From: an uncultured Rhizobium sp.
Lineage (GTDB): Bacteria; Pseudomonadota; Alphaproteobacteria; Rickettsiales; UBA1997
NCBI GenBank assembly: GCA_964447395.1
Contig: CAYUSO010000004.1
Location: 109-64,108 of the forward strand
Reading direction: 5' to 3'
Length of the DNA stretch: 64,000 bases
The notes under the pieces are model-generated. The model did not search any database and was not told the DNA's origin. It saw only the letters and a list, made by a program, of their open reading frames with translations. Made by a program: the position numbers and the translations under genes. Of the stretch, positions 7,469 to 60,431 are shown piece by piece (position 1 is the first letter of the stretch; every line of letters begins with the position of its first letter).

Positions 7469-7478
7469 AAAATCAAAA

Positions 7479-8258: not shown

Positions 8259-8303
8259 CCTCGATGCACAAAAACAGATCGCAAAACAAGTTCGCAAATC
8301 TTC

Positions 8304-8335
8304 ATCCCGAACTTGTTCGGGATTCGCGTTTTTTT
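8304..8335 (+). terminator. hairpin plus T-run after the ModA-like gene (family B hairpin)
   Basis: atcccgaa-cttg-ttcgggat (8304-8323), then tcgcg and ttttttt (8329-8335). Confidence 0.5.
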
Positions 8336-9593
8336 AAGCCCCCTTTTTGATCTCCTTCACCTTCACCAAAATCAAATCATGTCCGCGTTTTTTTAGAATC
8401 TGAAAATAAAAACCGCTGATTACAAAACTCTCTTTTTCATCAGGAATTCTTCCCAAATTATTAATGATGAAAGCCGCTAGGTTGTAGGCGTCATCACCCT
8501 CTTCTACTTCCCATTCCAATTTCTTATTAATGTCGCGAATTAAAGTTTTTCCGGCGATTTTGTAGCCTGATTTAGTTTTGATAATATTCATTTCCGACTC
8601 TTCATCTTGCTCTTTTATTTCGCCGACAATTTCTTCGAGAATATCCTCCAGAGTCACTAAACCAGCGAGCGAGCCATATTCATCAACCACCAAAGCGAAG
8701 CGTTTTTTTCTCTTTCTAAAAGCAAAAAGTTGCGAGCGTAAACTATTGCTAGATGGCGTAAACCAAGGCTCGGAAGTGGCTGGCGTTAATTCAAATTTTT
8801 CCAAATCGCCTTGATAAAAATGCAGAGCTTTAAGCAATTTTCGCACGTTTAAAATCGCCACGATATTTTCCTTATCTCCGCTCCAAAGCGGCATTCTGGT
8901 ATAATTTCCAGCAGTCGCTCGCTTCACAATTTCAGCAATCGGCAAGTTGATATTGATCGATTCGATATCTTTGCGATGCACCATAATTTCGCTGATTTCG
9001 GTGTCGGATAAATCCAAAACTCCGTCGAGCAAATCCTTGTCATATTTGAAAATCGAACCTTCTTTGGCCTTGAGATCAACGGCGTCGCGAATTTCTTCTA
9101 ATTCCGCTTCTTGAGTTTTTTTGTCAGTTTTTTTGAAAAATAAGTCGGAAAATTTTTGAACTACAAAAACTATCGGGGAAAAAATTCTAAACAAAAATTC
9201 AATCGCTCCTGCGAAAAATAATACGATTTTTTCCGAAGATTTTATCGCATAAGTTTTTGGCAAAATTTCTCCAAAAACTATCACCAAAATCGTCAATAAA
9301 ATCGTCGCGTAAACCAATCCAATTTCACCAAACATTTCGAGCAAAACTTTTGTGGTGACTGCAGAAGCGACAATGTTGACGATGTTATTGCCAATCAGCA
9401 TCACGCTCACAACTTTTTCGCGCTCTTTGAGTAATCTTTCCAATCTCTTTGCCCTTTTATTTCCCTCGCTCGCGAGCCGATGAATCTTCGCACGCGAAAC
9501 TGCTGTGATTGAAGTTTCAAAACAGGAAAGTAGCGCTGAAAAAATCAGCAAAAGCAGCACGATAATCAGATTAATTTCTATGTCGTTTAGCAT
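8334..9593 (-). CDS. tlyC: hemolysin C-type CNNM/DUF21 + CBS pair + CorC_HlyC domain membrane protein
   Basis: 419-aa ORF with an N-terminal 4-TM region, a CBS-like middle part, and a C-terminal transporter-associated domain (LAGLVTLEDILEEIVGEI). Confidence 0.85.
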   Translation of the reverse strand: MLNDIEINLIIVLLLLIFSALLSCFETSITAVSRAKIHRLASEGNKRAKRLERLLKEREKVVSVMLIGNNIVNIVASAVTTKVLLEMFGEIGLVYATILLTILVIVFGEILPKTYAIKSSEKIVLFFAGAIEFLFRIFSPIVFVVQKFSDLFFKKTDKKTQEAELEEIRDAVDLKAKEGSIFKYDKDLLDGVLDLSDTEISEIMVHRKDIESININLPIAEIVKRATAGNYTRMPLWSGDKENIVAILNVRKLLKALHFYQGDLEKFELTPATSEPWFTPSSNSLRSQLFAFRKRKKRFALVVDEYGSLAGLVTLEDILEEIVGEIKEQDEESEMNIIKTKSGYKIAGKTLIRDINKKLEWEVEEGDDAYNLAAFIINNLGRIPDEKESFVISGFYFQILKKRGHDLILVKVKEIKKGA

Positions 9594-10675
9594 TATTTTT
9601 TCGCGTCAAAATTAATTCGTGGATCAACCATTTTGTAGGTTAAATCGCTGATGAGATTCATGATTAAACCAAGCAAGGTGAAGATGTAAAGCGAGGCGAA
9701 CATCAGCGGATAATCGCGGGAAACCGCGGCTTCGTAGCTCAACAAACCAAGTCCATCGAGTGAAAAAATAATTTCGATGAGCATTGAACTGGTGAAAAAA
9801 ATTCCAATCAGCGCCGCAGGAAATCCGGAAATTACGATCAACATCGCATTGCGAAAAACGTGACGATACAAAATTTGACTTTGGCTCAAACCCTTGGCGT
9901 AAGCGGCTAGAACGTAGTTTTTATTTATCTCTTCGAGGAAAGAATTTTTGACGAAAAAAGTTAGCGAGGCAAATCCGCCAATCACCATCGCAAGAATCGG
10001 CAAAGTTAAATGCCAAAAATAATCGAGAATTTTTTGCGCGAAATTTAACTCGGCAAAATTCGATGAAACCAAGCCGCGCAAGGGAAAAATGTTGAGAAAA
10101 TTTCCGCCGCAAAAAAGCACGATGAGTAAAATCGCAAATAAAAAAGATGGAATTGCGTGAAAAAAAATCACCAGCGAACTCGTCCAAATATCAAATTTTG
10201 AACCGTCAAAAATTGCTTTTTTTATGCCAAGCGGAATTGAAATTAAATAGATCAGCAAAACCGTCCACAACCCTAGAGAAATCGATGTTGGCAGCTTTTC
10301 TGCAATTAGGGTTAAAATCTTTTTATCCTGATAAAAACTTTCGCCAAAATCGAAGGTAAAATATTTTTTCATCATCAAAAAAAAGCGCTGATGAAGTGGC
10401 AAATCGAAGCCGTAAAGTTTTTCGATTTTTTTTATCAACTCTTCATCAACACCTTGCGAACCCTGATATTTCAATGCTCCATCGCTAGTGATGTTTTTTA
10501 TTTCGGAGAAATTTTGCACTTCACCACCAACTTTTGTCGTATGATTCATCTGCGCAATAAATCGCTCCACTGGCCCACCCGGCGCGGCTTGGATAACCAA
10601 AAAATTCACCAGCATGATGATGAAAAGCGTGGGGAAAATCAGGAGGAAGCGTTTGAGAAAATAGAGATGCATCAA
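9593..10675 (-). CDS. yejB: ABC transporter permease, YejB/oligopeptide (OppB-like) family
   Basis: 360-aa ORF with typical N-terminus (RFLLIFPTLFIIMLVNFLVIQAAPGGPVE) and the EAA-loop region AAYAKGLSQSQILYRHVFRNA. Its stop overlaps the tlyC start by 1 nt. Confidence 0.8.
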   Translation of the reverse strand: MMHLYFLKRFLLIFPTLFIIMLVNFLVIQAAPGGPVERFIAQMNHTTKVGGEVQNFSEIKNITSDGALKYQGSQGVDEELIKKIEKLYGFDLPLHQRFFLMMKKYFTFDFGESFYQDKKILTLIAEKLPTSISLGLWTVLLIYLISIPLGIKKAIFDGSKFDIWTSSLVIFFHAIPSFLFAILLIVLFCGGNFLNIFPLRGLVSSNFAELNFAQKILDYFWHLTLPILAMVIGGFASLTFFVKNSFLEEINKNYVLAAYAKGLSQSQILYRHVFRNAMLIVISGFPAALIGIFFTSSMLIEIIFSLDGLGLLSYEAAVSRDYPLMFASLYIFTLLGLIMNLISDLTYKMVDPRINFDAKK

Positions 10676-14218: not shown

Positions 14219-16606
14219 ATGCGCTTCACAACCGTCAAACCAGAAAAAGAAAAAATCGCTAAAGGCGAAGTTTCTGCAGCGCATTTTATTCCCTATCGTT
14301 GCCACTGGAACTCCAACACAATTCTCACTCACAAAGAGGAATTAGTTCGCGTGATAAAAATCAAAGGCTTCGCTTTTGAAACTGCTGATGACATCGATAT
14401 CGATCTCAAAAAAAATGCCCGCAATAACTTGCTGAAAGGCATGGCCTCAGGCAATTTCTCGCTTTATTTCCACACGATTCGTCGCAAAGAAAAAGGCTTT
14501 CCAGATGGCGATATGCCTGATGCTTTCTCGCAAAGAGTAAATGATGAATGGGCAGCAAAACACTCCGATGCCAAGTGCTTTATCAATGAACACTATCTCA
14601 CAATCATCAGAGGCGCAGACACTTCTGGCGCAGCGGTTTTGGAGCATATGGCAAAAAAATTGCAGCATAAAACCGATAAAACCGCTTGGGAAAATTACAT
14701 GCGCGAAGCCTTCGATGAGATCGACGAAATGACCGAACGCATTTTAAATGGTTATGGAAATTACGGTGCAACTTTGCTCGACATCTCCGAAGGCGAAGAT
14801 GGATTCACTTCCGAACTTTTAGAATTTTTATCACGCTTGGTGAATTGCGGATATTCGCAACCAATCGCCATTCCGCTTGGGCAAATCTCGCATCATTTGC
14901 CAATTAGCCGACTTTATTTTGGCAATAAATCCATCGAAGCGCATCATGCTTCTGGCGTGAAATATGCTGGAATTGTTTCGATCAAAGAATATCGCCCATC
15001 GACTCACGCCGGCGTGTTTGACGGTTTTATGCAAATGCCTTTCGAGCTTGTCATCAGCCAATCATTTTCTTTCATTAACCGCATGGTGGCGATTAGTTCG
15101 ATGCAGTTGCAACAACGTCGCCTCGTACAATCAGAAGACGTCGCGGTTTCGCAAATTCAAGAAATTGACCAAGCACTTGATTCGGCAATGAGCGGTGAAT
15201 TCGCTTTCGGCCAACATCACATGACGGTGATGTGTGTTGAGGACACACCAAAATCTCTAGAAAGCGCTTTATCTCTTGCAGTTGTTGAACTTTCCAACGC
15301 CGGCATTACCGGCGTTCGCGAACGCATGAATTTGGAACCAGCTTTTTGGGCGCAATTGCCTTGCAACTCCGAATACATGGCGCGTCGCAGCGTTGTAAAT
15401 ACTCTCAACATTGCCGCTTTCGCTTCCTTCCACAATTACCCATCTGGCAAAAGAAAAAAGAACCATTGGGGCGATGCTGTCACTGTGCTTAACACTGTTT
15501 CCGGCACGCCATATTTTTTCAGTTTTCACGTACGCGATGTTGGTCACACCATGATTATCGGCCCGACTGGCGCGGGTAAAACCGTGTTGCTCAATTTCCT
15601 CTGTGCCCAAGCGCAAAAATTTAATCCGCGTTTATTTTTCTTCGACAAAGATCGCGGCGCAGAAATTTTTGTACGCGCTGTACGCGGTCGCTACATGATT
15701 CCAGATGCGGCAAAAGTTTCGGGGTTTAATCCTTTTCAGCTCGAAGACACTAACGAAAATCGCTCCTTCCTCATCGAATTCATGAAAGCCTTGGTGATGG
15801 TGAATGATTCTCCTCTTCCAGCGCATGAAATTGATCGCATCAACGAAGCAGTGAATGGCAATTACAAACTCCCGAAAGAGCAGCGCCGCTTGCGCAACCT
15901 AGCGCCATTCATGGGTTTAAGCGGCCCAGGAACTTTAGCAGGAAGATTGGCAATGTGGCACTCTGACGGTTCTCACGCCAAACTTTTCGACAATGAAGAA
16001 GACGTGATCAACTTCGAATCAGCTCGCACTTTCGGCATCGAAATGGGTCGCATGTTGCAAGATAAAATGGCGATTGCGCCAGTGCTGCTTTATCTCTTCC
16101 ATCGCATTCAATCTTCGCTGAAGGGTGATCCAACAATGATCGTGCTTGATGAAGCTTGGGCGCTCATCGGGAACCCAGTTTTCGCACCGAAAATCAAAGA
16201 TTGGCTCAAGGTTTTGCGGAAACTGAATTGCTTCGTAGTTTTCGCCACGCAATCGGTTGAAGATGCCGCGAAAAGCAGCATTTCCGATACTCTGGTTCAG
16301 CAAACTTCGACACAAATTTTCCTACCAAATCTGAAAGCAACTACGATTTATCGCGAAGTTTTTATGCTTTCAGAACGCGAATTTAATCTGGTAAAAACCA
16401 CTGATCCTTCGACGCGATTCTTTCTGGTTAAGCAAGATAATGACGGCGTAATTGCTCGTATTGATTTGGGCGGCATGGATGAAATTATTCGCGTACTCTC
16501 CGCACGAGCTGAAACCGTGATTCTAATGGATGAAATCATCGACCAAGTTGGGGATAATCCTGATGATTGGCTTCCAATCTACTACGAAAAATCAGGCAAA
16601 AAATAG
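14219..16606 (+). CDS. virB4: type IV secretion system ATPase VirB4
   Basis: 795-aa ORF with Walker A IGPTGAGKTV and Walker B MIVLDEAW. The N-terminus has the FIPYRCHWN...LTHKEEL pattern typical of Rickettsiales VirB4. Confidence 0.93.
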   Translation: MRFTTVKPEKEKIAKGEVSAAHFIPYRCHWNSNTILTHKEELVRVIKIKGFAFETADDIDIDLKKNARNNLLKGMASGNFSLYFHTIRRKEKGFPDGDMPDAFSQRVNDEWAAKHSDAKCFINEHYLTIIRGADTSGAAVLEHMAKKLQHKTDKTAWENYMREAFDEIDEMTERILNGYGNYGATLLDISEGEDGFTSELLEFLSRLVNCGYSQPIAIPLGQISHHLPISRLYFGNKSIEAHHASGVKYAGIVSIKEYRPSTHAGVFDGFMQMPFELVISQSFSFINRMVAISSMQLQQRRLVQSEDVAVSQIQEIDQALDSAMSGEFAFGQHHMTVMCVEDTPKSLESALSLAVVELSNAGITGVRERMNLEPAFWAQLPCNSEYMARRSVVNTLNIAAFASFHNYPSGKRKKNHWGDAVTVLNTVSGTPYFFSFHVRDVGHTMIIGPTGAGKTVLLNFLCAQAQKFNPRLFFFDKDRGAEIFVRAVRGRYMIPDAAKVSGFNPFQLEDTNENRSFLIEFMKALVMVNDSPLPAHEIDRINEAVNGNYKLPKEQRRLRNLAPFMGLSGPGTLAGRLAMWHSDGSHAKLFDNEEDVINFESARTFGIEMGRMLQDKMAIAPVLLYLFHRIQSSLKGDPTMIVLDEAWALIGNPVFAPKIKDWLKVLRKLNCFVVFATQSVEDAAKSSISDTLVQQTSTQIFLPNLKATTIYREVFMLSEREFNLVKTTDPSTRFFLVKQDNDGVIARIDLGGMDEIIRVLSARAETVILMDEIIDQVGDNPDDWLPIYYEKSGKK

Positions 16607-19600
16607 TGACAACTTTCCAGAAAAATTTTTTACAAAAAACTTTTTCCGCGCCGCTTTTCTTTGTTGTTTTTTTCACTTCAATTGTTGCGCCGATAAGCTC
16701 TTACAGCGCAGTAGATTATGGAGCGGGAAGAGTTCGTGAATGCGGCATCGTAAACGGAACTCCAACTCCTGCGGACATCACTCGCAACAGCAGCGGGGTT
16801 GTCACCGCGACTAAAACTGGACTTGATTTTAATCCAACCGATGCTGGAAAGGATATTGAATTTGTTCTGACAAATCCAGTTTGTGTCACGGTTATTGCGA
16901 CATCATACGCATTGGTAAAGGGCACAATTGCTACAATGAATGGAGTTTGCGGCAGCGGAAGCGTTGTTCCTCGCTTAATTCCATCACCATTTCTTGATGC
17001 GATAGACATCGCAAAAGCAGCACCACATCTTTCCAATCCAGCCTGCGCTGTCGCGGCAAGTGTCGCGGCGGCGGCATTTGGCGCAGCAATTGCTCAACTT
17101 GGAATAATTTACGCAATTGCCAATGGCACTCCGGAATTACCTGGGGTTTACCAAAAAACCAAAATCTGCGGCGCTAATTGGATGAAGCCAAGCGAAACAA
17201 CTTACAGCTTCAGCGCTGGCGATTACAAGCAAACAGTAGAATCGACGATTCGGGCCTATATTCGCAATAACGACACTTCCAACCTTTCTTTAACCAACAA
17301 AACCTATCGCGAATGGTATTATGGCGGAGTTGAAGTTGAGGATAATCCTGCTGATGGAGAAGTATGCTTGGATTCAACTATGGAAAAGGTTAATGGCCAA
17401 TATCCCAAACAAAAATATTACCTCAAAGGTACCGAAACCGGAAATTACAATTGCAAAAAATATTGGATTTTGCCTGGCCAGAATGATCCTCTAGGCAGCG
17501 CCAGAATGATGACACCCGAAAGATTCAGAGATCTTCAGCAATCCTACAATTGCTGCATGAAACGCAGTCAGCAATTTGTCTGCATCGATTACGACAATAC
17601 GAAAGTTTTTTGCCAAGGCGGAACGAGATGCACCATCAACGGCATAACTTTTTCCACCAAATCAATCGAGGATGGTCGCTTAATCTGCGCTGAAACCTAC
17701 AGTCTTTGTCCTTATAATTTCACAATTGGCGGCGGCTCAGAAGTTTGTGATTATTATCGCGATGGCGTATGGAAAGCTTCGGAAGCAAGATGGATTCTAA
17801 TCAAAGCCGAGGATCTTGAGGCAAAAAATTGTTCGCCAAATTTAACTAATTTTACCGGTAGCGAAATCAGAAACTCGGATTGCACCTACAACAAAAAAGC
17901 CGGCCAATGCCGCAATTATTGCCAATATCTGACTCACTGCACCAAAACTTCTAGCGAGGTTTATCGCTATCGCAGCAGCTTGAATTCGCCTTACTTCTCC
18001 GATGCCTGCATGAATTTTATTGGCGATTCGCAAAACAGAACCGCTCTTGTTGGTGGATTTGCTTTAGGCAGTCAAAAACATTTCAGCGCACCAATCGCGC
18101 AATGCATCAAAGAAACTCTGGAAAATCTTTTCTACAATCGAGCTGGTCACAGCGTTTGCTACAACGTCAACGAATATCCTTCCGCCAACGGAACTTGTCC
18201 GAGCGGCCAATATCTTCTCGATGGCGATTTTGAGTTTAAAAAAGGCAATAAAGTAAAAGAAAAATCCTTTTTCACCATCATACAAGATAACTTGCGAAAC
18301 ATTGTGAAGTTGGTGCTGATGCTCTCCATCACCTTCTACGGCATGAATATTCTAACCGGAAAAGCCAATCCTGGCAGCAGAAAAGAAGTCGCTATTTATC
18401 TTTTTAAAATTGCCACCGTGCTCTACTTCGCCACTGGCGATGCTTGGCAAACGGTGTTTTTCAAAGGAGTTTATAACACCTCGACAGAGCTATCGCGCAT
18501 GGTTTTCAAAATTGAGGTTCAGCCGCAAGAGGTAAAAAGAGACGGCTGCCAATTCGGCATAATTTCGCTCTCTGATGGATCAAAAGAATCAACAGGCCGA
18601 ACTTATCCAGCCGGCAAAGAATATTTGGCAATATGGGATACTATCGATTGCAAAATAATGCGTTATCTCGGCTTCGGGCCAGAAGCATCAACGGCAAATA
18701 TTGCCATGCTGATCATCTCCGCATATTTCACCGGACCGATAGGAATTTATTTCGCCCTCTCAGTTCTGATTTTTGGCATAATGCTGATTGCAACAGCGAT
18801 TCGAGCTTTACACATCTTCCTCGCCTCAGCTCTTTCAATCATAATTTTTGTTTTCATTTCGCCGATAATTATTCCGTTAGTGCTGTTTGAAAAAACGAAA
18901 AGCATTTTTGACAACTGGCTCAAAGAACTTATCAGTTTCTGTCTGCAACCGATGATACTTTTCGCTTACATTGCCATTCTCATAATCGTGATGGATAAAA
19001 CCTTGATTGGTAGCGCCACCTATCTCGGAACCGCTCCAGCAAAAACACTTTCTTGCGCTCAATATTGCATAGATTCAACAACCAAAGAAATCATTCCTTA
19101 CACTGGCGACACTCCTCCTGCTTGCGGCAATGGTCAAGAATGGATTAACCCTCTAAATGACAGCGTGGCTTGTCTGCTAAACTTCAACAGTTTTGGCAAA
19201 TTCCCTGGCTTTGAAATTATCGGCGTTTCGATTCCTATTCTTATCAATCTCTTCGAATCCAACGTTGTCGAAAGACTGCAAACCCTTTTGAAAGGCGCTT
19301 TGGTTATGTATCTGATTTACAAATTCATGGATGAAATTCCTGGCATCACATCGCAATTAATCGGCGGAACAAGACTGCCTTCAAGCAATGCCAACGCCTT
19401 CGAATACATGAAAGAACTCCTAGAGACTGCCAGAGCAATTCAGAAACGTGCAGCACGCGCTGGCAAAAAAGTTGGTAATAAAGCCAAGGAAGGTGTGAAA
19501 AATAGAGCTAACACCGTAGCAGAAAAATTCGGCAATAAGGGCAAGAGTGTCAAAGATAACGAAGGCAGCGGAAAAGATGGCGATAAATCTAGCAGCAGCA

Positions 19601-19635
19601 AGAGCGGCGACGGCGATCAGACCGGAAAAACTTAG
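16567..19635 (+). CDS. virB6: large VirB6/TrbL-family T4SS inner-membrane protein with Cys-rich N-terminal domain
   Basis: 1022-aa ORF directly after virB4. It has a signal/TM at the N-terminus, 24 Cys in the first ~560 aa, a multi-TM TrbL-like block at ~aa 580-870, and a K/G/S-rich tail. An alternative GTG start at 16606 overlaps the virB4 stop (taGTG). Confidence 0.75.
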   Translation: MASNLLRKIRQKIVTTFQKNFLQKTFSAPLFFVVFFTSIVAPISSYSAVDYGAGRVRECGIVNGTPTPADITRNSSGVVTATKTGLDFNPTDAGKDIEFVLTNPVCVTVIATSYALVKGTIATMNGVCGSGSVVPRLIPSPFLDAIDIAKAAPHLSNPACAVAASVAAAAFGAAIAQLGIIYAIANGTPELPGVYQKTKICGANWMKPSETTYSFSAGDYKQTVESTIRAYIRNNDTSNLSLTNKTYREWYYGGVEVEDNPADGEVCLDSTMEKVNGQYPKQKYYLKGTETGNYNCKKYWILPGQNDPLGSARMMTPERFRDLQQSYNCCMKRSQQFVCIDYDNTKVFCQGGTRCTINGITFSTKSIEDGRLICAETYSLCPYNFTIGGGSEVCDYYRDGVWKASEARWILIKAEDLEAKNCSPNLTNFTGSEIRNSDCTYNKKAGQCRNYCQYLTHCTKTSSEVYRYRSSLNSPYFSDACMNFIGDSQNRTALVGGFALGSQKHFSAPIAQCIKETLENLFYNRAGHSVCYNVNEYPSANGTCPSGQYLLDGDFEFKKGNKVKEKSFFTIIQDNLRNIVKLVLMLSITFYGMNILTGKANPGSRKEVAIYLFKIATVLYFATGDAWQTVFFKGVYNTSTELSRMVFKIEVQPQEVKRDGCQFGIISLSDGSKESTGRTYPAGKEYLAIWDTIDCKIMRYLGFGPEASTANIAMLIISAYFTGPIGIYFALSVLIFGIMLIATAIRALHIFLASALSIIIFVFISPIIIPLVLFEKTKSIFDNWLKELISFCLQPMILFAYIAILIIVMDKTLIGSATYLGTAPAKTLSCAQYCIDSTTKEIIPYTGDTPPACGNGQEWINPLNDSVACLLNFNSFGKFPGFEIIGVSIPILINLFESNVVERLQTLLKGALVMYLIYKFMDEIPGITSQLIGGTRLPSSNANAFEYMKELLETARAIQKRAARAGKKVGNKAKEGVKNRANTVAEKFGNKGKSVKDNEGSGKDGDKSSSSKSGDGDQTGKT

Positions 19636-21794: not shown

Positions 21795-22331
21795 CTAATA
21801 AGAGTTAGAAAGCCACGCTGGCACCGTGCGATCTTTTATAGGCTGAACCCGAATCAAAGAAGTTTGCACAGACTTAGGATGACCTTGGCTATATTGGTTG
21901 CGATATTCGGAAAGCAGTTGATCCATTCTGCGCGTCTTTCCTCCTAAATCTGGAGCATCTGAACTCACGATTTCAAGATCGCTCTGGTCGAAATAAAGTT
22001 GAACATAGTTGTAAGTCGTAGGATCAGCAAGGCTTGGCAGATTTTTTTCGTGAAAGAAAAATTCTTTTTTTACCTCATCGCCTTTTTCACTAACCCAAGA
22101 AACTTTTACTAAACCAAAAAAACGCGATGCTTTGTTGATGTAAAAAGATTGGCTTCGACTATCGCCCGGATTCAATGATGGCAAGGTCAAAACATTGCTA
22201 GCCCATTCACATCGAATATTTTTTATCGGTTCAGAACTAGCATTACTGAAATAAATTACGGGGCTTTCATGCGCGACTCCAGCGCAAGAAATAACAAAAA
22301 AATTTGCGAGAATGATGATTTTTTTTAGCAT
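21795..22331 (-). CDS. hypothetical lipoprotein
   Basis: 178-aa ORF with the lipobox-like N-terminus MLKKIIILANFFVISC. No recognisable domain. It overlaps the upstream GT2 gene by 7 nt. Confidence 0.55.
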   Translation of the reverse strand: MLKKIIILANFFVISCAGVAHESPVIYFSNASSEPIKNIRCEWASNVLTLPSLNPGDSRSQSFYINKASRFFGLVKVSWVSEKGDEVKKEFFFHEKNLPSLADPTTYNYVQLYFDQSDLEIVSSDAPDLGGKTRRMDQLLSEYRNQYSQGHPKSVQTSLIRVQPIKDRTVPAWLSNSY

Positions 22332-23186: not shown

Positions 23187-23969
23187 ATGAAAATAACTTC
23201 AAAAAAAGGCATTGTTATCGCTGTTGCGATTTTGCTACTTATCGGCTTTTCCGCACTGGTTGTGCATAATTACAAAACTAAAACTTCTTTCAAATTTGCT
23301 TCGCAAAATGCTGAAGAATTAAAGCCAGAACAAAATGCTCAAGATGCTGTCAGCGCCGCTGTTAACGCTGATGCGGAAAATCTTGCCGAAGCGCGCAAAA
23401 ATAGCGAAGTGCTAAAAATTTCTGCACATGATTTTGTTTTGGGAGACAAAAATGCGCCCGTCACTTTGATCGAATATGCTTCACTTTCTTGTCCGCATTG
23501 CGCTGCTTTTGCTCGCGAATCTTTTGAAAAATTAAAAACTGAATTTGTCGATAGCGGCAAAGTAAAATTCATCTTTCGCAATTTTCCGTTAAATCAATCT
23601 GCGCTTACTGCCGCAATGTTCGCTACTTGCCAAGCTCACGATACCAAACCAGGAGAAACTGAAAAATATTTTTCTACCGTAAAAGTGCTTTTCAAAACTC
23701 AAGATAGTTGGGCCTTTGATGAGAAATTCACCGAAAAATTGGAAGCAATTGCCAAGCTCGACGGCATGAGCTCTGACCGCTTTAAAAGCTGCGTCAGCGA
23801 CAAATCTCTGCAAGACAGAATTCTTTCGGAAAGAATGGAAGCATCAAAATCTTTACAGCTGCGCTCAACTCCGAGTTTTTTCATCAATGGCGAAATTTCC
23901 GAAGGTTATATCGATTACCAAACTTTGAAAAAAATGATCGAGAAGCATCTTTCTGAAATCAAAAAATAA
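23187..23969 (+). CDS. DsbA-family thiol:disulfide oxidoreductase
   Basis: The internal ATG at 23187 gives a TM anchor (MKITSKKGIVIAVAILLLIGF). Active site CPHC lies in IEYASLSCPHCAAF, and the thioredoxin-fold cis-Pro region is TPSFFING. Confidence 0.8.
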   Translation: MKITSKKGIVIAVAILLLIGFSALVVHNYKTKTSFKFASQNAEELKPEQNAQDAVSAAVNADAENLAEARKNSEVLKISAHDFVLGDKNAPVTLIEYASLSCPHCAAFARESFEKLKTEFVDSGKVKFIFRNFPLNQSALTAAMFATCQAHDTKPGETEKYFSTVKVLFKTQDSWAFDEKFTEKLEAIAKLDGMSSDRFKSCVSDKSLQDRILSERMEASKSLQLRSTPSFFINGEISEGYIDYQTLKKMIEKHLSEIKK

Positions 23970-23973
23970 TTTT

Positions 23974-24741
23974 GTGTCAGCAAAACTTCTCATAAAAAAT
24001 CTCACCAAAAATTTCGGTGAAAAAAAAGTTTTAACCGGCATTGATTTGCAGGTGAATCAGGGCGAGTCGATTGTTATTCTTGGCGGCTCCGGAAGTGGAA
24101 AATCTGTTTTGATTAAAATCATCGCAACCCTTATCAATCCTAGCTCAGGAAGTATTCAAATTGATGGAAAAGAAGTGGCGAATATCAGCGCTAAAGATCG
24201 CGACAAACTGATGGAAAAATTCGGATTTTTATTTCAAGGCGGCGCACTTTTTGATTCACTTTCAGTTTGGGAAAATGTCGCTTTTCGTCTGCTCTATCAC
24301 AAAAAAATGAACAAAAAAGAAGCGCGAGAAATCGCGTTGGAAAAATTAAAAGCTGTCGGCTTGAGCGAAAAAACTGCCGATCTTTTTCCTTCCGAACTTT
24401 CCGGCGGAATGCAAAAACGCGCTTCACTTGCGCGCGCAATTGCCGCAAATCCAGAAATTATTTTCTTCGACGAACCCACAACTGGCCTTGATCCAATCAT
24501 GGCCGATGTAATTAACGATCTCATCATTGCCAACTCAAAAAAACTTGGCGCAACTACAATCACCATCACTCACGACATGAATTCCGCGCGCAAAATTGCC
24601 GACAAAATTGCCATGCTTTATGAAGGAAAAATCATCTGGTTTGGCAATGTGAATGAAATGTATACATCAGGAAATGAATATCTTGATCAATTCATTCACG
24701 GCAGATCGACTGGCCCAATTAATTTTCTAACAACCAAGTAA
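23974..24741 (+). CDS. mlaF: ABC transporter ATP-binding protein, MlaF-like, without adjacent permease
   Basis: 255-aa ORF (GTG start) with Walker A GGSGSGKS, signature LSGGMQKR, Walker B IIFFDEPT, and the MlaF-like tail LDQFIHGRSTGPI. Confidence 0.75.
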   Translation: MSAKLLIKNLTKNFGEKKVLTGIDLQVNQGESIVILGGSGSGKSVLIKIIATLINPSSGSIQIDGKEVANISAKDRDKLMEKFGFLFQGGALFDSLSVWENVAFRLLYHKKMNKKEAREIALEKLKAVGLSEKTADLFPSELSGGMQKRASLARAIAANPEIIFFDEPTTGLDPIMADVINDLIIANSKKLGATTITITHDMNSARKIADKIAMLYEGKIIWFGNVNEMYTSGNEYLDQFIHGRSTGPINFLTTK

Positions 24742-24745
24742 ATTT

Positions 24746-25603
24746 ATGAAAAAACAGACGGCGTTTTCTTTGATCGAACTTTCAATCGTAATTCTAATCA
24801 TCGGAATTTTAGTTGCAGGCATCACGCAATCTTCGCGATTGGTAAAACAATTTCGCTTAAAAACAGCGCAAACTTTAACTCAAAGCTCGCCAGTTCACAG
24901 CATTAAAGATTTGATGTTGTGGTATGAAACAAGCATGGAAGGCAGCATCGCCGAAAGCGAAATGGTAAATGGCGGAGCAGTCACCACTTGGTATGATTAC
25001 AACAAGCAAAACGTGAATAAAATTAACGCCACTTCAAGCTCTACCGCTAGACCACTTTACACCGAAGATGCAATCAACAGCTTGCCAGTTCTGAGATTTG
25101 ATGGATCAGATGACTTGCTGAGTTTTGATGGTTCTCAATTAATCGCCACGGCTTACACTGTTTTCATAGTCGAGCAAAGAAGAGCCGCTCTTGGCTCAAC
25201 CGACTCACCTTTAATGGGCGGAACCACAAACTCAGCGCGAGAAAATCTCCACATCCTTTATCGTAACGAAACATTACTCAATTTTTCGGATTATGCTAAT
25301 GATCTTGGCTACAGCATTGGCTCTTACACTACGCCAACTCCTCGTATTCACACCTGCTATCAAAGCACTTCTGACGGCAGAAAATATTGGCTTAATGGCG
25401 GAACTTCTGCCGATGCATCAGATGCAACATTTACCAATACTTTAATCTCTTACACCGCGGCTGCTCTTGGTCGTTATCACACCAGATTTTTCAATGGCGA
25501 CATCGCCGAAGTAATCATCTTCACTCGCGCACTTAAAAACGAAGAAAGACAAGCCATCGAGACCTATTTGAGCAAAAAATATAGCATCAAAATCACTGGA
25601 TAA
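24746..25603 (+). CDS. prepilin-type N-terminal domain protein fused to a LamG/concanavalin-like domain (paralog 1)
   Basis: 285 aa. The N-terminus MKKQTA-FSLIELSIVILIIGILVAGI is a class III signal with Glu at +5. The body has LRFDGSDDLLSFDGS, YTVFIVEQRR, and NGDIAEVIIFTRALKNEERQAIETYLSKKY. Confidence 0.7.
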   Translation: MKKQTAFSLIELSIVILIIGILVAGITQSSRLVKQFRLKTAQTLTQSSPVHSIKDLMLWYETSMEGSIAESEMVNGGAVTTWYDYNKQNVNKINATSSSTARPLYTEDAINSLPVLRFDGSDDLLSFDGSQLIATAYTVFIVEQRRAALGSTDSPLMGGTTNSARENLHILYRNETLLNFSDYANDLGYSIGSYTTPTPRIHTCYQSTSDGRKYWLNGGTSADASDATFTNTLISYTAAALGRYHTRFFNGDIAEVIIFTRALKNEERQAIETYLSKKYSIKITG

Positions 25604-25612
25604 AAATACCGA

Positions 25613-26461
25613 ATGAAAAAGGCCTTTTCCTTGATCGAAGTTTCTATCGTAATTTTGATCATCGGAATCCTGATTTCTGCCATCTCTCAAGGCGGGGTTT
25701 TCATCAACAAATCCCGCCTTTCAAATGCACAATCCCTCACACAAAATTCTGTTGTTAATCACATCTCCGACTTAATCGCCTGGTACGAAACTTCACTAGA
25801 ATCAAGCTTTCCTGTCAGCGAACAAAATAACCAAGGCGCAATCAGCACTTGGTATGACAACACTCCGAGCGCCATCACCAAAAACAACGCCACTCAAGGA
25901 ACCAGTGCCAATCAGCCAAAATTTTATGAAAATATTTTTAACGGCGCGATTCCAGGAATCAGATTTGATGGCTCAAACGATTTGATGCTATTCGATGGCA
26001 GCCTGCTTGCAAACAGCTCTTACACAATTTTCGTAGTTGAACAAAGACGCAGCAATTCCAGCTCAAATTATTTTCTTGGCGGCACAACCTTGTCACAAAA
26101 TCAGAATTTAGTTTTGGGCTATCGCGCCAATACCACTCTCACTCAAGCGCATTATTCTAACGATATGGATGTGACTGTTGCGGCCTACTCTTCTCCGCAA
26201 CCAAAAATTCACACTTTTCAATTCGACACCACAAACGGCAAAAAATATTGGGTAAATGGCGGCACAACTCCCGACGCAACAAGTGCCGGACAAACCGCAG
26301 CCATAACCTCTTACACCGCTTCGGCTTTGGGACGATATAATGCTAGCTACTACAATGGCGATTTGGCGGAGGTGATAATTTTCAAGCGCATTTTGAAAGG
26401 TGACGAGCGGCAAAATATCGAGAATTATCTCAGCAAAAAATATGGGATTTCGATTAGCTAA
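25613..26461 (+). CDS. prepilin-type N-terminal domain protein fused to a LamG/concanavalin-like domain (paralog 2)
   Basis: 282 aa. The N-terminus is MKKA-FSLIEVSIVILIIGILISAI. It is collinear with paralog 1 (IRFDGSNDLMLFDGS, YTIFVVEQRR, NGDLAEVIIFKRILKGDERQNIENYLSKKY). Confidence 0.7.
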   Translation: MKKAFSLIEVSIVILIIGILISAISQGGVFINKSRLSNAQSLTQNSVVNHISDLIAWYETSLESSFPVSEQNNQGAISTWYDNTPSAITKNNATQGTSANQPKFYENIFNGAIPGIRFDGSNDLMLFDGSLLANSSYTIFVVEQRRSNSSSNYFLGGTTLSQNQNLVLGYRANTTLTQAHYSNDMDVTVAAYSSPQPKIHTFQFDTTNGKKYWVNGGTTPDATSAGQTAAITSYTASALGRYNASYYNGDLAEVIIFKRILKGDERQNIENYLSKKYGISIS

Positions 26462-27303
26462 GATGCAACAAACTGATCGTAAGCATCATTTAAAATTCGT
26501 GCGATTTTGCGATTTTTTCCTTCAGAAACTTTTTGTCCGTCAATTTGCGCAATCGGGCGCAGAATCAAGCTAGAGCTGGTTAAAAACACTTCTTTTGCAT
26601 TCATCATTTCTTCCAAAGTAAAATTTTTTTCTGCGACTTTAATGCCTTTTTCTTTGGCGATTTTAATGAGACGATTGCGCGTGATGCCGCATAAAATCAG
26701 GTTGTCCGGCGCTTTAGTTGTGAGCACATCATTGGCATCAACAATGAAAGCATTGGCGAAACTTGCCTCGGTGACAATTCCATTTCGTACAAAAACCGCA
26801 TCGTCAAAACCAGCATCTTTCGCCTTTTGATTAATCATTGACGAAGCCAATAAATTCACGGTTTTAATGTCGCATCTTTGCCAGCGAATATCTTCGTGAG
26901 TCATCAAAGAAAATCCTTTTTCAAACTCTTCAGCAGAAACTTTTTTGCGCGGAGAAACTGTTGCAGAAATTGTTGGTTTCAAATTTTTTGGAATCCAAGG
27001 AACACGATTTGTAGCACCGCGCGTCACTTGCATATAGCAGGTTCCGGCGGTCATTTTATTGCGCGAAAAAAGTTCAAATTGGATTTTTTTTAACTCGTCA
27101 GCAGAAAAATTATGTTCGATTTTTAACTCGCGAAGAGAGCGAAAAAAACGCTCAATATGCGCGTCGCCATCAATTAATTTTCCATTTTCGAAAAGCGTCA
27201 CTTCGTAAGCGCCATCAGCAAATTGAAAACCGCGATCTTCGATGTGAACAAGACAAGATTCGTGGGGAAGAAATTCACCGTTTAGATAGCTAATGCGAGA
27301 CAT
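26458..27303 (-). CDS. class IV (D-amino acid / branched-chain) aminotransferase
   Basis: 281-aa ORF with fold-type IV motifs (DRGFQFADGAYE, EASFANAF, GITR). Its stop overlaps the stop of the convergent pilin-LamG gene (ctaa). Confidence 0.85.
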   Translation of the reverse strand: MSRISYLNGEFLPHESCLVHIEDRGFQFADGAYEVTLFENGKLIDGDAHIERFFRSLRELKIEHNFSADELKKIQFELFSRNKMTAGTCYMQVTRGATNRVPWIPKNLKPTISATVSPRKKVSAEEFEKGFSLMTHEDIRWQRCDIKTVNLLASSMINQKAKDAGFDDAVFVRNGIVTEASFANAFIVDANDVLTTKAPDNLILCGITRNRLIKIAKEKGIKVAEKNFTLEEMMNAKEVFLTSSSLILRPIAQIDGQKVSEGKNRKIARILNDAYDQFVAS

Positions 27304-32625: not shown

Positions 32626-32700
32626 GCTCCCGTAGCTCAGGGGATAGAGCAGTGGTTTCCTAAACCATGTGCGCATGTTCGAGTCATGCCGGGAGCACCA
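32626..32700 (+). tRNA. tRNA-Arg (anticodon CCU), CCA encoded
   Basis: Hand-folded: acceptor gctcccg/cgggagc, D arm gctc-aggggata-gagc, anticodon arm gtggt-ttCCTaa-accat, variable gtgc, T arm gcatg-ttcgagt-catgc, then a-cca. Confidence 0.92.
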
Positions 32701-33914: not shown

Positions 33915-35195
33915 ATGCCAAAAATCATTAGATCTGCTGAACAAAAAATTCTTAAAATCATCGCCAACAATCCAAGCAACATCGTCTATGTCAGCGGACC
34001 CAGACAAGCGGGGAAAACAACTTTGGCTAAAGATTTTGTAAAAAAATTTGCGGCAAAACACAAAAATAAATTCGAGAAAATTTCCTATATTACATTCGAT
34101 GATGGCAATGCACTTTCTTCAGCGAAATCTGATCCGGAGCGCTTTATTGAAGGATTGGAAGGATTTACAATTATCGACGAGGTTCAACTCGCACCAGAAA
34201 TTTTTCGTCCATTAAAGAAAAAAATTGACGAGGCGCGCTACAAAAAAACAGCAATAAATTTTTTACTCACCGGATCAGCAAATATTTTGCTTTTGCCAAA
34301 ACTTTCCGACGCTCTGGTTGGCCGCATGACTATTGTGGAGCTTCTTCCTATCTCGGTTGGCGAGGCGTTTAAAACTAACAAAAATTTTATTGAATTTCTT
34401 TTTGAGAAAAAAATTCTCTTTCGAGCAAAGGCTTCTTTGTCAACCAAAACTAAGGTGATAAAGGCGATAAAAACTGCGACTTTTCCGCAGATTTCAGCAA
34501 ATCGTGAGATTGATCGTGAATCGTGGTTTCGCGATTATATCAATAACTTGATTAGAAGAGATGTGCGCGAAATTTCTGAAATAGAAAATATCTCTGCTAT
34601 GCCTAAAGCGTTAAAAGCTTTGTCTGCAAGGGTTGGTGGCCTTATTAATGACGCTGATATTGCGCGTGATGTCTCGCTTAATCAAATGACTTTCAAGCGC
34701 TATAAAATTCTTTTAGAAAATGTTTTTCTGATTTTTCATTTGCAACCGTGGTTTCGCAATCTCACAAAAAGATTAATCAAAACTCCAAAAATTTATTTTA
34801 CCGATAGTCTGTTGTTAAGCCAGGTTCTAGGGCTTGATTTAGATGATTTACACAAAAATAACCCCGAAATTTTCGGAAAAATTCTGGAAAATTTTATCGC
34901 AAGCGAGCTGCTAAAACAAACAAAATTATTCGGAAATTTTGATCTTTATCATTTTAGAACTTCAGATGACAAGGAAGTAGATTTTGTAATTGAACGCAAA
35001 GATGGCAAGCTGGTTGGGGTCGAAGTAAAGAGCAAAAAAACATTACAAGAATCCGATCTAATCGGCCTTAAAACCTTACAAAACCTAGTTCCAAAGAGTT
35101 TCGTCAAAGGCATAATTCTATATCAAGGCGATGACATTCTAACCTTCGGCAACAACATTTTTGCTCTCCCCATTTCTACTTTATGGGAGAGTTAA
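33915..35195 (+). CDS. AAA+ ATPase with DUF4143-type C-terminal domain (COG1373-like)
   Basis: 426-aa ORF with Walker A GPRQAGKTT and Walker B IIDEVQ. The C-terminal E.DF(V/I) region (KEVDFVIERKDGKLVGVEVK) is typical of this family. Confidence 0.8.
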   Translation: MPKIIRSAEQKILKIIANNPSNIVYVSGPRQAGKTTLAKDFVKKFAAKHKNKFEKISYITFDDGNALSSAKSDPERFIEGLEGFTIIDEVQLAPEIFRPLKKKIDEARYKKTAINFLLTGSANILLLPKLSDALVGRMTIVELLPISVGEAFKTNKNFIEFLFEKKILFRAKASLSTKTKVIKAIKTATFPQISANREIDRESWFRDYINNLIRRDVREISEIENISAMPKALKALSARVGGLINDADIARDVSLNQMTFKRYKILLENVFLIFHLQPWFRNLTKRLIKTPKIYFTDSLLLSQVLGLDLDDLHKNNPEIFGKILENFIASELLKQTKLFGNFDLYHFRTSDDKEVDFVIERKDGKLVGVEVKSKKTLQESDLIGLKTLQNLVPKSFVKGIILYQGDDILTFGNNIFALPISTLWES

Positions 35196-35221
35196 TCTAA
35201 CGCTTGATGTTGGATTAACAA
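35191..35221. repeat. 31-nt hairpin repeat, right flank of the AAA-ATPase gene (contains its stop codon)
   Basis: gttaatctaac-gcttgatg-ttggattaacaa. The ATPase TAA stop (35193-35195) lies inside the repeat. Confidence 0.85.
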
Positions 35222-35235
35222 ACTTTAATAAAACT

Positions 35236-36843
35236 ATGGCAAAACTAAAAATTCATCTTGCGCAGATTAATCCGACGGCTGGGGATCTCGAGGGAAATTA
35301 CAAAAAAATTCTCCATCAACATAAGCTGGCAAGCGAGGAAGGGTGCGACTTGGTGGTGTTTTCGGAAATGGCGATTTGTGGTTATCCTTGCGAAGATTTG
35401 TGGCAGAAAAAATATTTTATTCGCGCGGTTCAGGAAAAAATTTTGGAAATTTTAGTTGCGACAAAAGACTCAAAATGCGCGATTTTGCTAGGTGCGCCAA
35501 CTTTTGATTTAGAAAGAAAAAAAGAAGTTTTGCGCAATTCGGCGATTTTTATCGAGCGAGGCGAGATCAAAAAAATCATCAATAAAAAGACTTTGCCGAA
35601 TTTCGGAGTCTTCGATGAACATAGGCATTTTGTGGCTTCGCAGTTTTTATCTTCAATTGAGTTTCGCGGTTTAACTTTGTCGATTTTGATCTGCGAAGAT
35701 TTGTGGGATGCGAGAAATCTTTTTCTGCTGCAGGAGCAAATTTTTGATCTCCTAATCACAATTAACGCCTCGCCTTATTCGACAAAAAAACACGAATATC
35801 GTCAGAAACTTTGCGAAAATTTTGCTCAAACTCTCGGCAAGAATTTGATTTATGTGAATCAGGTTGGAGGTCAGGATTCTCTAGTGTTTGACGGCTCTTC
35901 ATTTGCGATGAATAAAGCCGGAGAAATCGTCGCGCAGCTAAAAGAATTCGAAGAAGATTCGGCGATGATTGAGGTGGAGAAAACCGGAAAAATAATTCCA
36001 CTTACGACTTACGACTTACGACTTAAGACTAATCACAAACGCAATTACCAAGCCTGTATTCTCGGCCTTCGCGACTATGTTTCGAAAAATAATTTCAAAA
36101 AGGTAATTCTTGGAATGTCTGGCGGCGTAGATTCGGCGCTGGTTGCAGCTATGGCAGTTGATGCTCTTGGAAAAGAAAATGTCACGCTTTATGCACTGCC
36201 GAGCCGCTATAATTCTGAGGAATCGATGATTGATGCAAAAAATTGCGCGCAGAATTTGGGAGTGGATTTGGAGATAATTTCTATCGAAGCGGTTTTTGAA
36301 TCGATGCTTTTTTCAGTAAAAAATTCTTCGGATTTGGCGAAGGAAAATATGCAATCGCGCATTCGCGGAAACATTCTCATGGCAATCTCCAACTCAACTG
36401 GCGCACTTTTGCTTTCAACTGGAAATAAATCCGAACTCGCCTGCGGCTATGCCACGCTTTACGGCGACATGTGCGGCGGCTTTAATCCAATCAAAGATCT
36501 ATACAAAACTCAGGTTTACGAATTGGCGCAACTCAAGAGCGACGTGATCCCACAAAATATTTTAACCAAAGCTCCAACTGCTGAATTGCGAGAAAATCAG
36601 AAAGATTCTGACTCGCTACCCGATTATGAAATTCTCGATAAAATTCTTTTTCAGCTGATTGAGGAACAAAAATCGGTTGAGGAAATTTCGCGTTTCATCG
36701 ACGAAGAACTTGTAAAAAAAGTGGCAAAACTTTTTTACACAAGCGAGTATAAACGCAAGCAGGCTGTGCTTGGGCCAAAAATTTCCGATATGTCTTTCGA
36801 CAAAGATCGTCGCTATCCAATCACTAATAAATTCAAAAAATGA
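35236..36843 (+). CDS. nadE: glutamine-dependent NAD+ synthetase
   Basis: The ATG at 35236 gives MAKLKIHLAQINPTAGDLEGN, a nitrilase-like N-domain with the FSEMAICGYPCEDL and ICEDLW Cys. The synthetase domain has GMSGGVDSAL. Confidence 0.92.
   Translation: MAKLKIHLAQINPTAGDLEGNYKKILHQHKLASEEGCDLVVFSEMAICGYPCEDLWQKKYFIRAVQEKILEILVATKDSKCAILLGAPTFDLERKKEVLRNSAIFIERGEIKKIINKKTLPNFGVFDEHRHFVASQFLSSIEFRGLTLSILICEDLWDARNLFLLQEQIFDLLITINASPYSTKKHEYRQKLCENFAQTLGKNLIYVNQVGGQDSLVFDGSSFAMNKAGEIVAQLKEFEEDSAMIEVEKTGKIIPLTTYDLRLKTNHKRNYQACILGLRDYVSKNNFKKVILGMSGGVDSALVAAMAVDALGKENVTLYALPSRYNSEESMIDAKNCAQNLGVDLEIISIEAVFESMLFSVKNSSDLAKENMQSRIRGNILMAISNSTGALLLSTGNKSELACGYATLYGDMCGGFNPIKDLYKTQVYELAQLKSDVIPQNILTKAPTAELRENQKDSDSLPDYEILDKILFQLIEEQKSVEEISRFIDEELVKKVAKLFYTSEYKRKQAVLGPKISDMSFDKDRRYPITNKFKK
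36001..36030. repeat. heptamer tandem repeat (cttacga)x4 inside nadE coding sequence
   Basis: cttacga cttacga cttacga cttaaga ct, translated in frame as TTYDLRLKT. It is the same unit as the right arm of the 2526-2606 hairpin. Confidence 0.85.
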
Positions 36844-60429: not shown

Positions 60430-60431
60430 GT

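Follow-up and report, generated by a model that had tools for sequence, protein, structure and literature searches.

Modular pilins, which carry the N-terminal methylation motif (IPR012902) together with an extra domain that is not specific to type IV pili (T4P), are the described proteins closest to those reported here. The concanavalin A (ConA)-like module of the minor type IV pilin PilC from Streptococcus sanguinis is an experimentally proven lectin (PMC9934059), and it has been proposed to be an adhesin presented by the filament (PDB 7OA7/7OA8; PMC9934059). Raynaud et al. (2021, PMC8179133) list the combination of N_methyl (IPR012902) with PF13385 as one of the 15 most frequent architectures of modular pilins, and the same source gives GspK as a pilin-like subunit with an extra domain at the tip of the pseudopilus (PMC8179133). 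Here two genes, pil1 and pil2, are described from a 64,000-nucleotide stretch of contig CAYUSO010000004.1 (assembly GCA_964447395.1, labeled as an uncultured Rhizobium sp.), referred to below as the window. Both encode the IPR012902 motif followed by a LamG-type domain and are modular pilins by architecture. Both belong to a large family of modular pilin-like proteins specific to a lineage of freshwater Rickettsiales-like Alphaproteobacteria. With a probability of roughly 0.6, these LamG proteins are processed and then built into, or displayed on, a type IV filament by machinery that is encoded at dispersed sites in the genome. The features of the two genes are as follows.

24746 to 25603, plus strand: pil1 (285 aa), pilin-like (type IV) and LamG-headed (N_methyl, TIGR02532, AlphaFold2/Foldseek)
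24746 to 24826, plus strand: class III signal of pil1, with the leader MKKQTA (24746-24763) and a predicted Ala/Phe cut
24911 to 25582, plus strand: LamG/ConA-like jelly roll of pil1 (residues ~56-260) and C-terminal helix (265-279), from DSSP and Foldseek
25613 to 26461, plus strand: pil2, a 282-aa paralog with the leader MKKA and a predicted cut before FSLIEVS

The initial annotation had read pil1 and pil2 as paralogs, each beginning with a prepilin signal that has Glu at +5 and, at -1, Ala in place of the usual Gly. Both points held. The two proteins are 51% identical, and the TIGR02532 model scored above its cutoff of 16.3 bits with each of them (21.1 bits for pil1 and 25.0 bits for pil2). 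With the Pfam N_methyl model (PF07963, cutoff 21.2 bits), pil1 was detected at 25.8 bits (7.1e-6), while pil2 was marginal at 21.1 bits, or 0.1 under the cutoff. In both, a short hydrophilic leader precedes a hydrophobic stretch with Phe at +1 and Glu at +5. The hydrophobic alpha1N segment of pil1 after the predicted cut reads FSLIELSIVILIIGILVAGIT, with Glu at +5 and Gly at +14. N_methyl matched in 34 of 36 aligned relatives. Across these 36 sequences F7, L9, E11 and S13 (pil1 numbering) are invariant, so that Phe, Leu and Glu are fixed at +1, +3 and +5; A6 and G20 are near-invariant, the latter as Gly14 of an IIGIL motif. The entropy profile delimits a conserved segment at residues 6-29, which corresponds to the class III signal plus alpha1N.

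An AlphaFold2 model of pil1, made from the 36-sequence alignment, was confident (pLDDT 91.6, pTM 0.87) and contains helix 9-46, 12 strands and helix 265-279 as assigned by DSSP. The predicted head is a two-sheet beta-sandwich of the jelly-roll type. A Foldseek search of the PDB with this model gave 220 matches at E ≤1e-3, mostly to ConA/LamG-type lectin domains. Those with a probability of 1.0 included the lectin domains of trans-sialidase, of the tetanus and botulinum neurotoxins (TeNT/BoNT Hc-N) and of a phage (cyanophage) tailspike, and the carbohydrate-binding domain of AbnA (GH43) was also among the top matches. S. sanguinis PilC was matched at 3.7e-6 (7oa7) and 1.1e-5 (7oa8). When the PDB was searched by sequence with the family profile, weak N-terminal pilin matches (E 0.015-0.7) and no homologue of the head were obtained. 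The LamG/concanavalin jelly roll proposed in the initial annotation is supported by the predicted fold, and also at the level of the family: Laminin_G_3 (PF13385) matched 20 of the 36 aligned relatives at E ≤0.01 (best 1.2e-7). The window proteins themselves score below threshold, with 19.2 bits (1.5e-3) for pil1 and 18.8 bits (1.9e-3) for pil2.

Conservation within the head is concentrated in a few blocks, namely RFDG (114-121), TVFIVEQRR (138-146) and GDIAEVIIF...ER..IE.YLSKKY (251-279), and the most variable loops are at ~148-166 and 222-248. The C-terminal helix of pil1 bears a Laminin_G_3-type end motif, GDIAEVIIFTRAL..EER..IE.YL. The GDIAEVIIF.RAL..EE motif is one that we take to resemble the usual Laminin_G_3 ending.

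The family is large. A word-indexed search returned at least 1,768 homologues at E ≤1e-3, which, where they were named at all, were named only as 'prepilin-type N-terminal cleavage/methylation domain-containing protein'. At ≤1e-30 there were 3,371 representatives at 50% identity, a count that takes in multi-repeat LamG proteins that are not pilins. Among reference genomes taken one per species, relatives are encoded in 329 stretches, of which 79 distinct loci were kept. All but one of these (78 of 79) are titled Alphaproteobacteria, Rickettsiales, Rickettsia, Rhizobium or Pseudomonadota, and many of their source metagenome-assembled genomes (MAGs) were obtained in surveys of lakes, with species labels that in some cases were clearly assigned automatically. 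The odd one out is a contig from a MAG labeled Lentimonas sp. (L056, JBLHVR010000007.1), which has five family members as well as an aminotransferase and an enolase 53% and 66% identical to those of the window; it is probably a Rickettsiales-like contig mis-binned into a Verrucomicrobia MAG. Implausible species labels, such as 'Rickettsia typhi' and 'Rhizobium sp.', are borne by several other MAGs.

Family genes are also numerous within single genomes. The fetched DNA of three MAGs holds at least 13 (CAILUF01), at least 12 (JBJTWJ01) and at least 10 (BJGH01) copies. Over all the fetched DNA, family genes are arranged as 70 singletons, 19 pairs and arrays of up to six, and they lie at varied housekeeping sites, as in nhaA-[pil]-glmM-alaS, ribBA-[pil][pil]-pabB and guaA-[pil]-ftsJ, where neither a DsbA nor an ABC ATPase gene is found. 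Clustering of the two nearest neighbors on each side of 139 family genes gave no recurrent non-housekeeping partner; the recurrent clusters are housekeeping genes, each bound to one syntenic site.

Several relatives depart from the architecture of the window proteins. In a 3,863-aa protein (P0245) the class III signal …KRSG|FSLVEVA is followed by 13 tandem LamG modules, and in one of 1,335 aa labeled 'Rickettsiales bacterium' (P0280) …ANGG|YSLAELS is followed by four; by their sequences, both would in effect be multi-lectin 'pilins'. Other top matches were giant proteins of the Sec or type IX secretion system (T9SS) type with 8-15 LamG repeats. Four proteins of 457-473 aa (P0274, P0275, P0288 and P0335) consist of a complete pilin-LamG unit with a Cys-rich C-terminal extension and, unlike the window copies, would need disulfide formation. 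In another, of 751 aa (P0338), the extension is Gly-rich. ORFs (open reading frames) of 46-69 aa that contain leader and alpha1 only were found beside intact members (L052, 7419-7559 and 8199-8405; L058, 3422-3571; L068, 14293-14430). These look like pseudogene fragments or decayed copies, which suggests turnover within the arrays.

As had been stated initially, the 64 kb hold no genes for a pilus or a type II secretion system (T2SS). Pfam scans of essentially all window ORFs of at least 150 aa detected no T2SSE, T2SSF, A24 peptidase or secretin, and phmmer searches of the window with E. coli GspC-M, GspO, HofB, HofC and PpdD detected no Gsp or Hof homologue. The machinery search covered all ORFs of the window and of 87 loci, amounting to ~1.1 Mb of sequence around family members in related genomes. 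Here the sole match to the E. coli queries was a PilC/GspF homologue on one locus (L073), and motif searches for A24 GxGDxK and for the T2SSE Walker A gave nothing credible. The L073 gene (T2SSF) lies between def and bioD, 4 kb from a family member.

Homologues of this PilC/GspF protein across the wider clade are 64-73% identical to it, and in every context examined the gene stands alone in its def-pilC-bioD slot. In the ENA sample ERZ3460577 it is on a 954-kb contig with a coverage of 31.4, and a family member is on a 249-kb contig with a coverage of 31.9 and 41% G+C; the two contigs very probably belong to the same genome. A further copy is named for the MAG RIFCSPLOWO2_01_FULL_40_26, which is the source of two of the family loci (L060 and L069). 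The platform protein scored best against the GspF model (258-268 bits; cutoff 424), followed by PilC models. T4P and T2SS genes are patchily retained in Rickettsiales (PMC10847448; bioRxiv 10.1101/479196). Multi-component systems are scattered in the genome of the window, so that pilus genes missing from 64 kb are not anomalous. Single genes scattered over the chromosome account for the 'missing' machinery better than a new mechanism would.

These observations suggest the following sequence of events. The pilin-like proteins would insert into the inner membrane via alpha1, and a prepilin peptidase encoded elsewhere in the genome would cut them at the Ala/Phe junction. The products of singly scattered genes would make up a type IV filament machine that incorporates the subunits into a pilus or pseudopilus, or presents them, and the variable LamG loops may bind glycans or other ligands and so attach the cell to a eukaryotic partner or some other surface. 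The many stably placed paralogs, their fast divergence and the variants described above fit diversified adhesins.

Several points weigh against presentation by a filament machine. The missing prepilin peptidase and assembly ATPase are its chief weakness: neither the window nor the ~1.1 Mb around family members in relatives yielded a prepilin peptidase, a PilB/GspE ATPase or a secretin. According to a review, Gly at -1 is invariant at the end of class III leaders in bacteria (PMC4471445). Of 130 family members, 118 have Ala at this position and 12 have Gly, and neither pil1 nor pil2 has Gly there. Strom and Lory reportedly found in 1991 that Ala is the one -1 substitution that permits cleavage by PilD in Pseudomonas aeruginosa, and Ala at -1 is natural in some streptococcal ComGC proteins. 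Because of this residue the window proteins are classed here as pilin-like rather than as proven pilins. A loose class III regular expression, applied to ORFs of at least 40 aa in ~1.1 Mb of loci, detected no ordinary small (shaft) pilin; it yielded only truncated or fragmentary family copies and one non-pilin match. Within the 64-kb window no ORF other than pil1 and pil2 has a class III signal.

The structural comparison gives further points of this kind. All 12 strands of the pil1 model are in the LamG sandwich, and the model lacks a canonical pilin beta-sheet. Of the usual pilin arrangement, in which alpha1 packs on a four-stranded sheet, often with a C-terminal disulfide, the model has helix 9-46 and nothing beyond it. 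As there are no spare strands for a pilin sheet, the jelly roll is predicted to replace the pilin head, not to be appended to it. Both window proteins also score under the Laminin_G_3 gathering score of 27.6 bits. Cleavage, incorporation into a filament, lectin activity and host adhesion of pil1 and pil2 are inferred, which likewise tempers the reading. Finally, freshwater Rickettsiales of the family UBA1997 are small epibionts of cryptophyte algae (bioRxiv 10.1101/2023.01.31.526412), and the study of them could draw out nothing on the nature of the epibiosis (bioRxiv 10.1101/2023.01.31.526412); the tie of the window and the pilin-like family to this epibiotic lifestyle is conjecture.

Many of the same points are expected if the proteins are not filament subunits and the pilin-like N-terminus, cleaved or not, is a membrane anchor. 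The products would then be periplasmic LamG proteins tethered to the inner membrane that might bind envelope glycans or substrates. The lack of PilB, PilD and secretin genes in the window and in 1.1 Mb of related loci, Ala in place of Gly in 118 of 130 members, a model without a canonical pilin head and the failure to find a shaft-type pilin in the sampled DNA all favor such an anchor, and a bulky head of 25 kDa per subunit would be difficult to pack in a standard T4P. Nevertheless, a simple anchor does not call for the invariant or near-invariant F+1, E+5 and Gly14 or for the short basic leader, features that are tied to peptidase recognition, methylation and assembly (PMC4471445). The PilC/GspF platform gene is strongly conserved and has been retained in reduced genomes, and the giant relatives with the same signal and 4-13 LamG modules resemble extended surface fibers. 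We consider the anchor explanation unlikely.

Placing pil1 and pil2 as minor pseudopilins or tip subunits of a T2SS or of a competence-type pseudopilus, with a LamG head that binds cargo or DNA-associated ligands, is more doubtful still. The platform gene of the relatives does score ahead of the PilC models against GspF, but all of its scores with platform models are far under the equivalog cutoffs and hence give no assignment to a filament type. Weak N-terminal matches to GspH and GspG were obtained, and the window encodes a secreted LigE-type DNA ligase. Ligases of this type are associated with naturally competent bacteria, a link that would matter if DNA is taken up by the type IV filament. 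A precedent exists within the Rickettsiales, where the extracellular Deianiraea encodes the core components of a T2SS, three pseudopilins among them (bioRxiv 10.1101/479196). Set against this are the number of paralogs, at least 10 per genome, which far exceeds any known T2SS or Com system, and the lack of any GspD, GspE or GspC-M homologue in the sampled DNA.

The remaining explanation concerns the genes immediately upstream of pil1, which had been taken initially, together with pil1 and pil2, for an operon of a kind not yet described. The further features that bear on it are listed here.

23187 to 23969, plus strand: gene 1, a DsbA-like thiol:disulfide oxidoreductase of 260 aa (Thioredoxin_4 3.2e-42; DSBA 2.1e-8; CPHC)
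23974 to 24741, plus strand: gene 2, a stand-alone ABC-transporter ATPase of 255 aa with a GTG start (ABC_tran 4.4e-34; MlaF/ProV-like)
26458 to 26461, no strand: CTAA stop-stop overlap, formed by the TAA of pil2 (26459-26461) and the TAG of the aminotransferase gene (26458-26460, minus strand)
7347 to 8258 (plus strand), 9593 to 10675 (minus strand) and 23974 to 24741 (plus strand): dispersed ABC-transporter parts

The ORF listing gives a plus-strand block of four ORFs (23187-23969, 23974-24741, 24746-25603 and 25613-26461), and the junction sequences agree with the gaps of 4, 4 and 9 nt first noted. The pil2 stop does overlap that of a convergent class IV aminotransferase gene (26458-27303, minus strand; Aminotran_4 6.7e-45), as had also been observed (ctaa, 26458-26461). 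A consensus scan found no plus-strand terminator-like site within 23187-26461. Counts of promoter-like and terminator-like sites in the block were at or below the expectation from shuffled controls, and these scans gave no regulatory signal over shuffle that would set the pilin genes apart from the DsbA and ABC genes. The DsbA and ABC ATPase genes are probably co-transcribed with the pilin genes, because the compact genome packs its genes tightly. Gaps of 40 nt or less occur in 17 of the 35 same-strand neighbor pairs of the window, functionally unrelated pairs included, and several convergent or divergent pairs are spaced by -4 to +7 nt. The tight spacing of the quartet is genuine, yet it is not diagnostic of a functional unit.

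The description of the upstream companions as a thiol oxidoreductase and an ABC ATPase without its permease agrees with their Pfam matches. Gene 1 has a hydrophobic membrane anchor at its N-terminus and a CPHC active-site motif, as seen in its translation, and scores 145 bits with Thioredoxin_4 (cutoff 23.2) and 34.6 bits with DSBA (cutoff 25.6). With a DsbA-type thioredoxin fold signature and a CxxC motif, its sequence identifies it as a DsbA-family oxidoreductase. Against the enterobacterial DsbA models it reaches only 17.6-26 bits (cutoffs 279-290), and it is membrane-anchored; it is not an equivalog. Residues 7-251 of gene 2 align to positions 11-254 of the 270-position MlaF profile (PRK11831) with an E value of 5e-55 and 186.6 bits, as against an equivalog cutoff of 441. 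The ProV model gives a partial match of 196 bits, and the ProV, PhnT2 and GlnQ models are all comparable to MlaF. Judged by these scores gene 2 falls outside MlaF, the ATPase of the phospholipid transporter MlaFEDB, and 'MlaF-like' denotes resemblance only. Pfam scans of essentially all window ORFs of at least 150 aa detected no MlaE, MlaD or adjacent permease. As a pilus assembly motor, gene 2 was rejected, since it belongs to the wrong ATPase superfamily (T2SSE match, E 0.32). Other ABC parts in the window are dispersed in the same way, an SBP_bac_11 solute-binding protein and a BPD_transp_1 permease both being without partners like gene 2, and partnerless ABC components seem to be a general rule in this genome.

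Synteny was assessed by tblastn with window genes against loci of other species. The order hyp178-GT2, DsbA-ABC-pilin, aminotransferase-enolase is found in eight loci (L005-L008, L013, L020, L027 and L074), with queA and ubiE also upstream in several of them, and the collinear block extends over 8-10 kb. Orthologues in these loci are 52-71% identical for DsbA and 76-87% for the ABC ATPase. In seven of the eight the site holds a single pilin gene. The single pilins of L005-L008 and L013 are nearer to pil2 (51-55% identity, 295-313 bits) than to pil1 (43-48%, 239-265 bits); for L020 the difference is marginal (222 bits with pil2 and 216 with pil1), and the L027 gene is cut by the contig end. On this sequence comparison pil2 is probably the ancestral occupant of the site, and pil1 an added copy. 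The eighth locus, L074, has two tandem pilin genes (7260-9116) only 31-42% identical to those of the window, next to an ABC gene at 86% and a DsbA gene at 71%; these sequences suggest that the occupants of the slot were either replaced or diverged very fast. The pilin gene is the fastest-evolving of the block, at 31-55% identity to the window pilins as against 63-87% for DsbA, ABC, aminotransferase and enolase in the closer loci, which fits an exposed, ligand-facing protein.

The hyp178 gene is a 178-aa ORF (21795-22331, minus strand) that matched neither Pfam nor NCBIfam models; its N-terminus (…NFFVISC) resembles that of a lipoprotein. It is kept at the same position in seven related loci at 49-57% identity and overlaps the GT2 gene by 7 nt.

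Conservation of gene order had been named as a sign of a functional unit, and the DsbA-ABC-pilin order is indeed present in the eight loci. The tandem pilin pair is not, being reduced to one gene in seven of them, and the order is kept only inside a collinear housekeeping block, so that it says nothing specific about the quartet. Elsewhere the paralogs are dispersed among unrelated neighbors. The translations of pil1 and pil2 contain one Cys and none, respectively, and 44 of 139 family members have no Cys. With one Cys or none, no disulfide can form within the window pilins and DsbA is not needed; a role for it in serving them was rejected on this ground.

A single dedicated system, in which DsbA folds the pilins and the ABC ATPase powers export or assembly, would account for the gaps of 4, 4 and 9 nt without a detected internal terminator and for the gene order shared with eight loci of other species at 52-71% DsbA identity, but it is very improbable given that the whole 8-10 kb block (queA, ubiE, GT2, aminotransferase and enolase included) is collinear, that DsbA was found next to family members at this one syntenic site only, that the pilin gene number there varies between one and two, that Cys pairs are absent from the window pilins and any Cys from 44 of 139 members, that the ATPase is an ordinary transporter nucleotide-binding domain of the MlaF/ProV type and not of the PilB/GspE type, and that unrelated window genes are spaced just as tightly. 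Genes 1 and 2 are most likely tightly packed housekeeping neighbors with no functional partnership with the pilins. The proposal of a functional quartet was thus abandoned, and DsbA, the orphan ABC ATPase and the pilins do not make up a system. Nor is the fusion itself undescribed, as the prepilin-LamG combination already figures in the published list of the commonest modular-pilin architectures (PMC8179133).

Other features of the window were recorded. A type IV secretion system (T4SS) of the rvh-like type is split, with VirB4 (CagE_TrbE_VirB 6e-54) and a 1,022-aa TrbL/VirB6-domain protein at 14219-19635, and VirB9 (CagX 1e-47) and VirB8 (6e-37) at 59548-61082, ~40 kb from VirB4/VirB6. A split rvh-type arrangement is typical of Rickettsiales and supports a Rickettsiales-like origin of the window. 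The LigE-type ATP-dependent DNA ligase (41818-42648, plus strand; PRK09125 365.8 bits, cutoff 200) has a clear Sec-type signal peptide, MKLKAFLVFFLFLSAANSA|EPP, and is presumably periplasmic. Between rpsG (4426-4893) and fusA (425-2503) there is an unusual insertion, a 570-aa ORF (2641-4353, minus strand) with a GINT1_N domain (glucosamine inositolphosphorylceramide transferase N-terminal; 3e-28). The genes rpsG and fusA are normally neighbors in the str operon, and the GINT1_N domain was described from eukaryotes.

A retropepsin-like aspartic protease of clan AA (58923-59540, plus strand; TIGR02281 127 bits; gag-asp_proteas 1.5e-24) begins 1 nt after an aminotransferase gene and presumably resembles the APRc type of Rickettsia. 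A DUF4143/AAA_14 ATPase (33915-35195, plus strand) is located downstream of tRNA-Arg(CCT) (32626-32700) and dusB, in the stretch of the window with the lowest G+C content (37.6%, 34001-36000), and may be a small mobile or defense-related insertion.

If type IV filaments with lectin tips or lectin bodies are indeed built from this family, they would be a concrete molecular candidate for the attachment of extracellular or epibiotic environmental Rickettsiales to eukaryotes. At least 10 copies correspond to ~1% of a genome of ~1.2 Mb, and a family of this extent is unlikely to be dispensable. A more far-reaching proposal is that in genome-reduced freshwater Rickettsiales, probably associated with host surfaces, the usual pilins have been replaced by at least 10-13 LamG-headed Ala/Phe subunits. 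These would build a 'lectin filament', alone or with the giant multi-LamG relatives, and the repertoire of paralogs would set the algal or protist glycan targets. Such a filament would be a candidate attachment organelle from the evolutionary transition between free-living and intracellular Rickettsiales. We regard this proposal as speculative and unlikely. For annotation, the locus illustrates that gaps of 4-9 nt and a conserved order alone are no proof of a functional system in compact genomes.

Compared with the systems described at the outset, the window proteins are like S. sanguinis PilC in that a jelly roll of the ConA/LamG type is carried by a short pilin part with a class III signal, and the sequence identity in the Foldseek alignments is ~12-13%. 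PilC is a protein of 52.8 kDa with an Ig-like module between pilin and lectin, encoded by a single gene in a 22-kb pil locus of a monoderm. In contrast, the window proteins have ~285 aa, with the jelly roll directly after alpha1 and Ala instead of Gly at -1, and they come from a diderm alphaproteobacterium in which the family numbers at least 10 paralogs per genome, dispersed and without adjacent pil genes. The N-terminal methylation motif is also present in GspH and GspK of the T2SS. Matches to the GspH and GspG models reached 16-18 bits (cutoffs 80-89) over only the first ~26-56 residues, however, and the T2SS minor pseudopilins differ in the fold of the head and in having a gsp operon, of which there is none in the window. 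The domains are those of the architecture in Raynaud et al. (2021), a survey that, in its listing of architectures, is a catalogue and is not devoted to the Rickettsiales-like family (PMC8179133). Particular to the window family are its multi-copy dispersal, the Ala before the cleavage site and a pilin head that is apparently not separate from the jelly roll. The family is a variation on the known modular-pilin theme and not a new kind of system.

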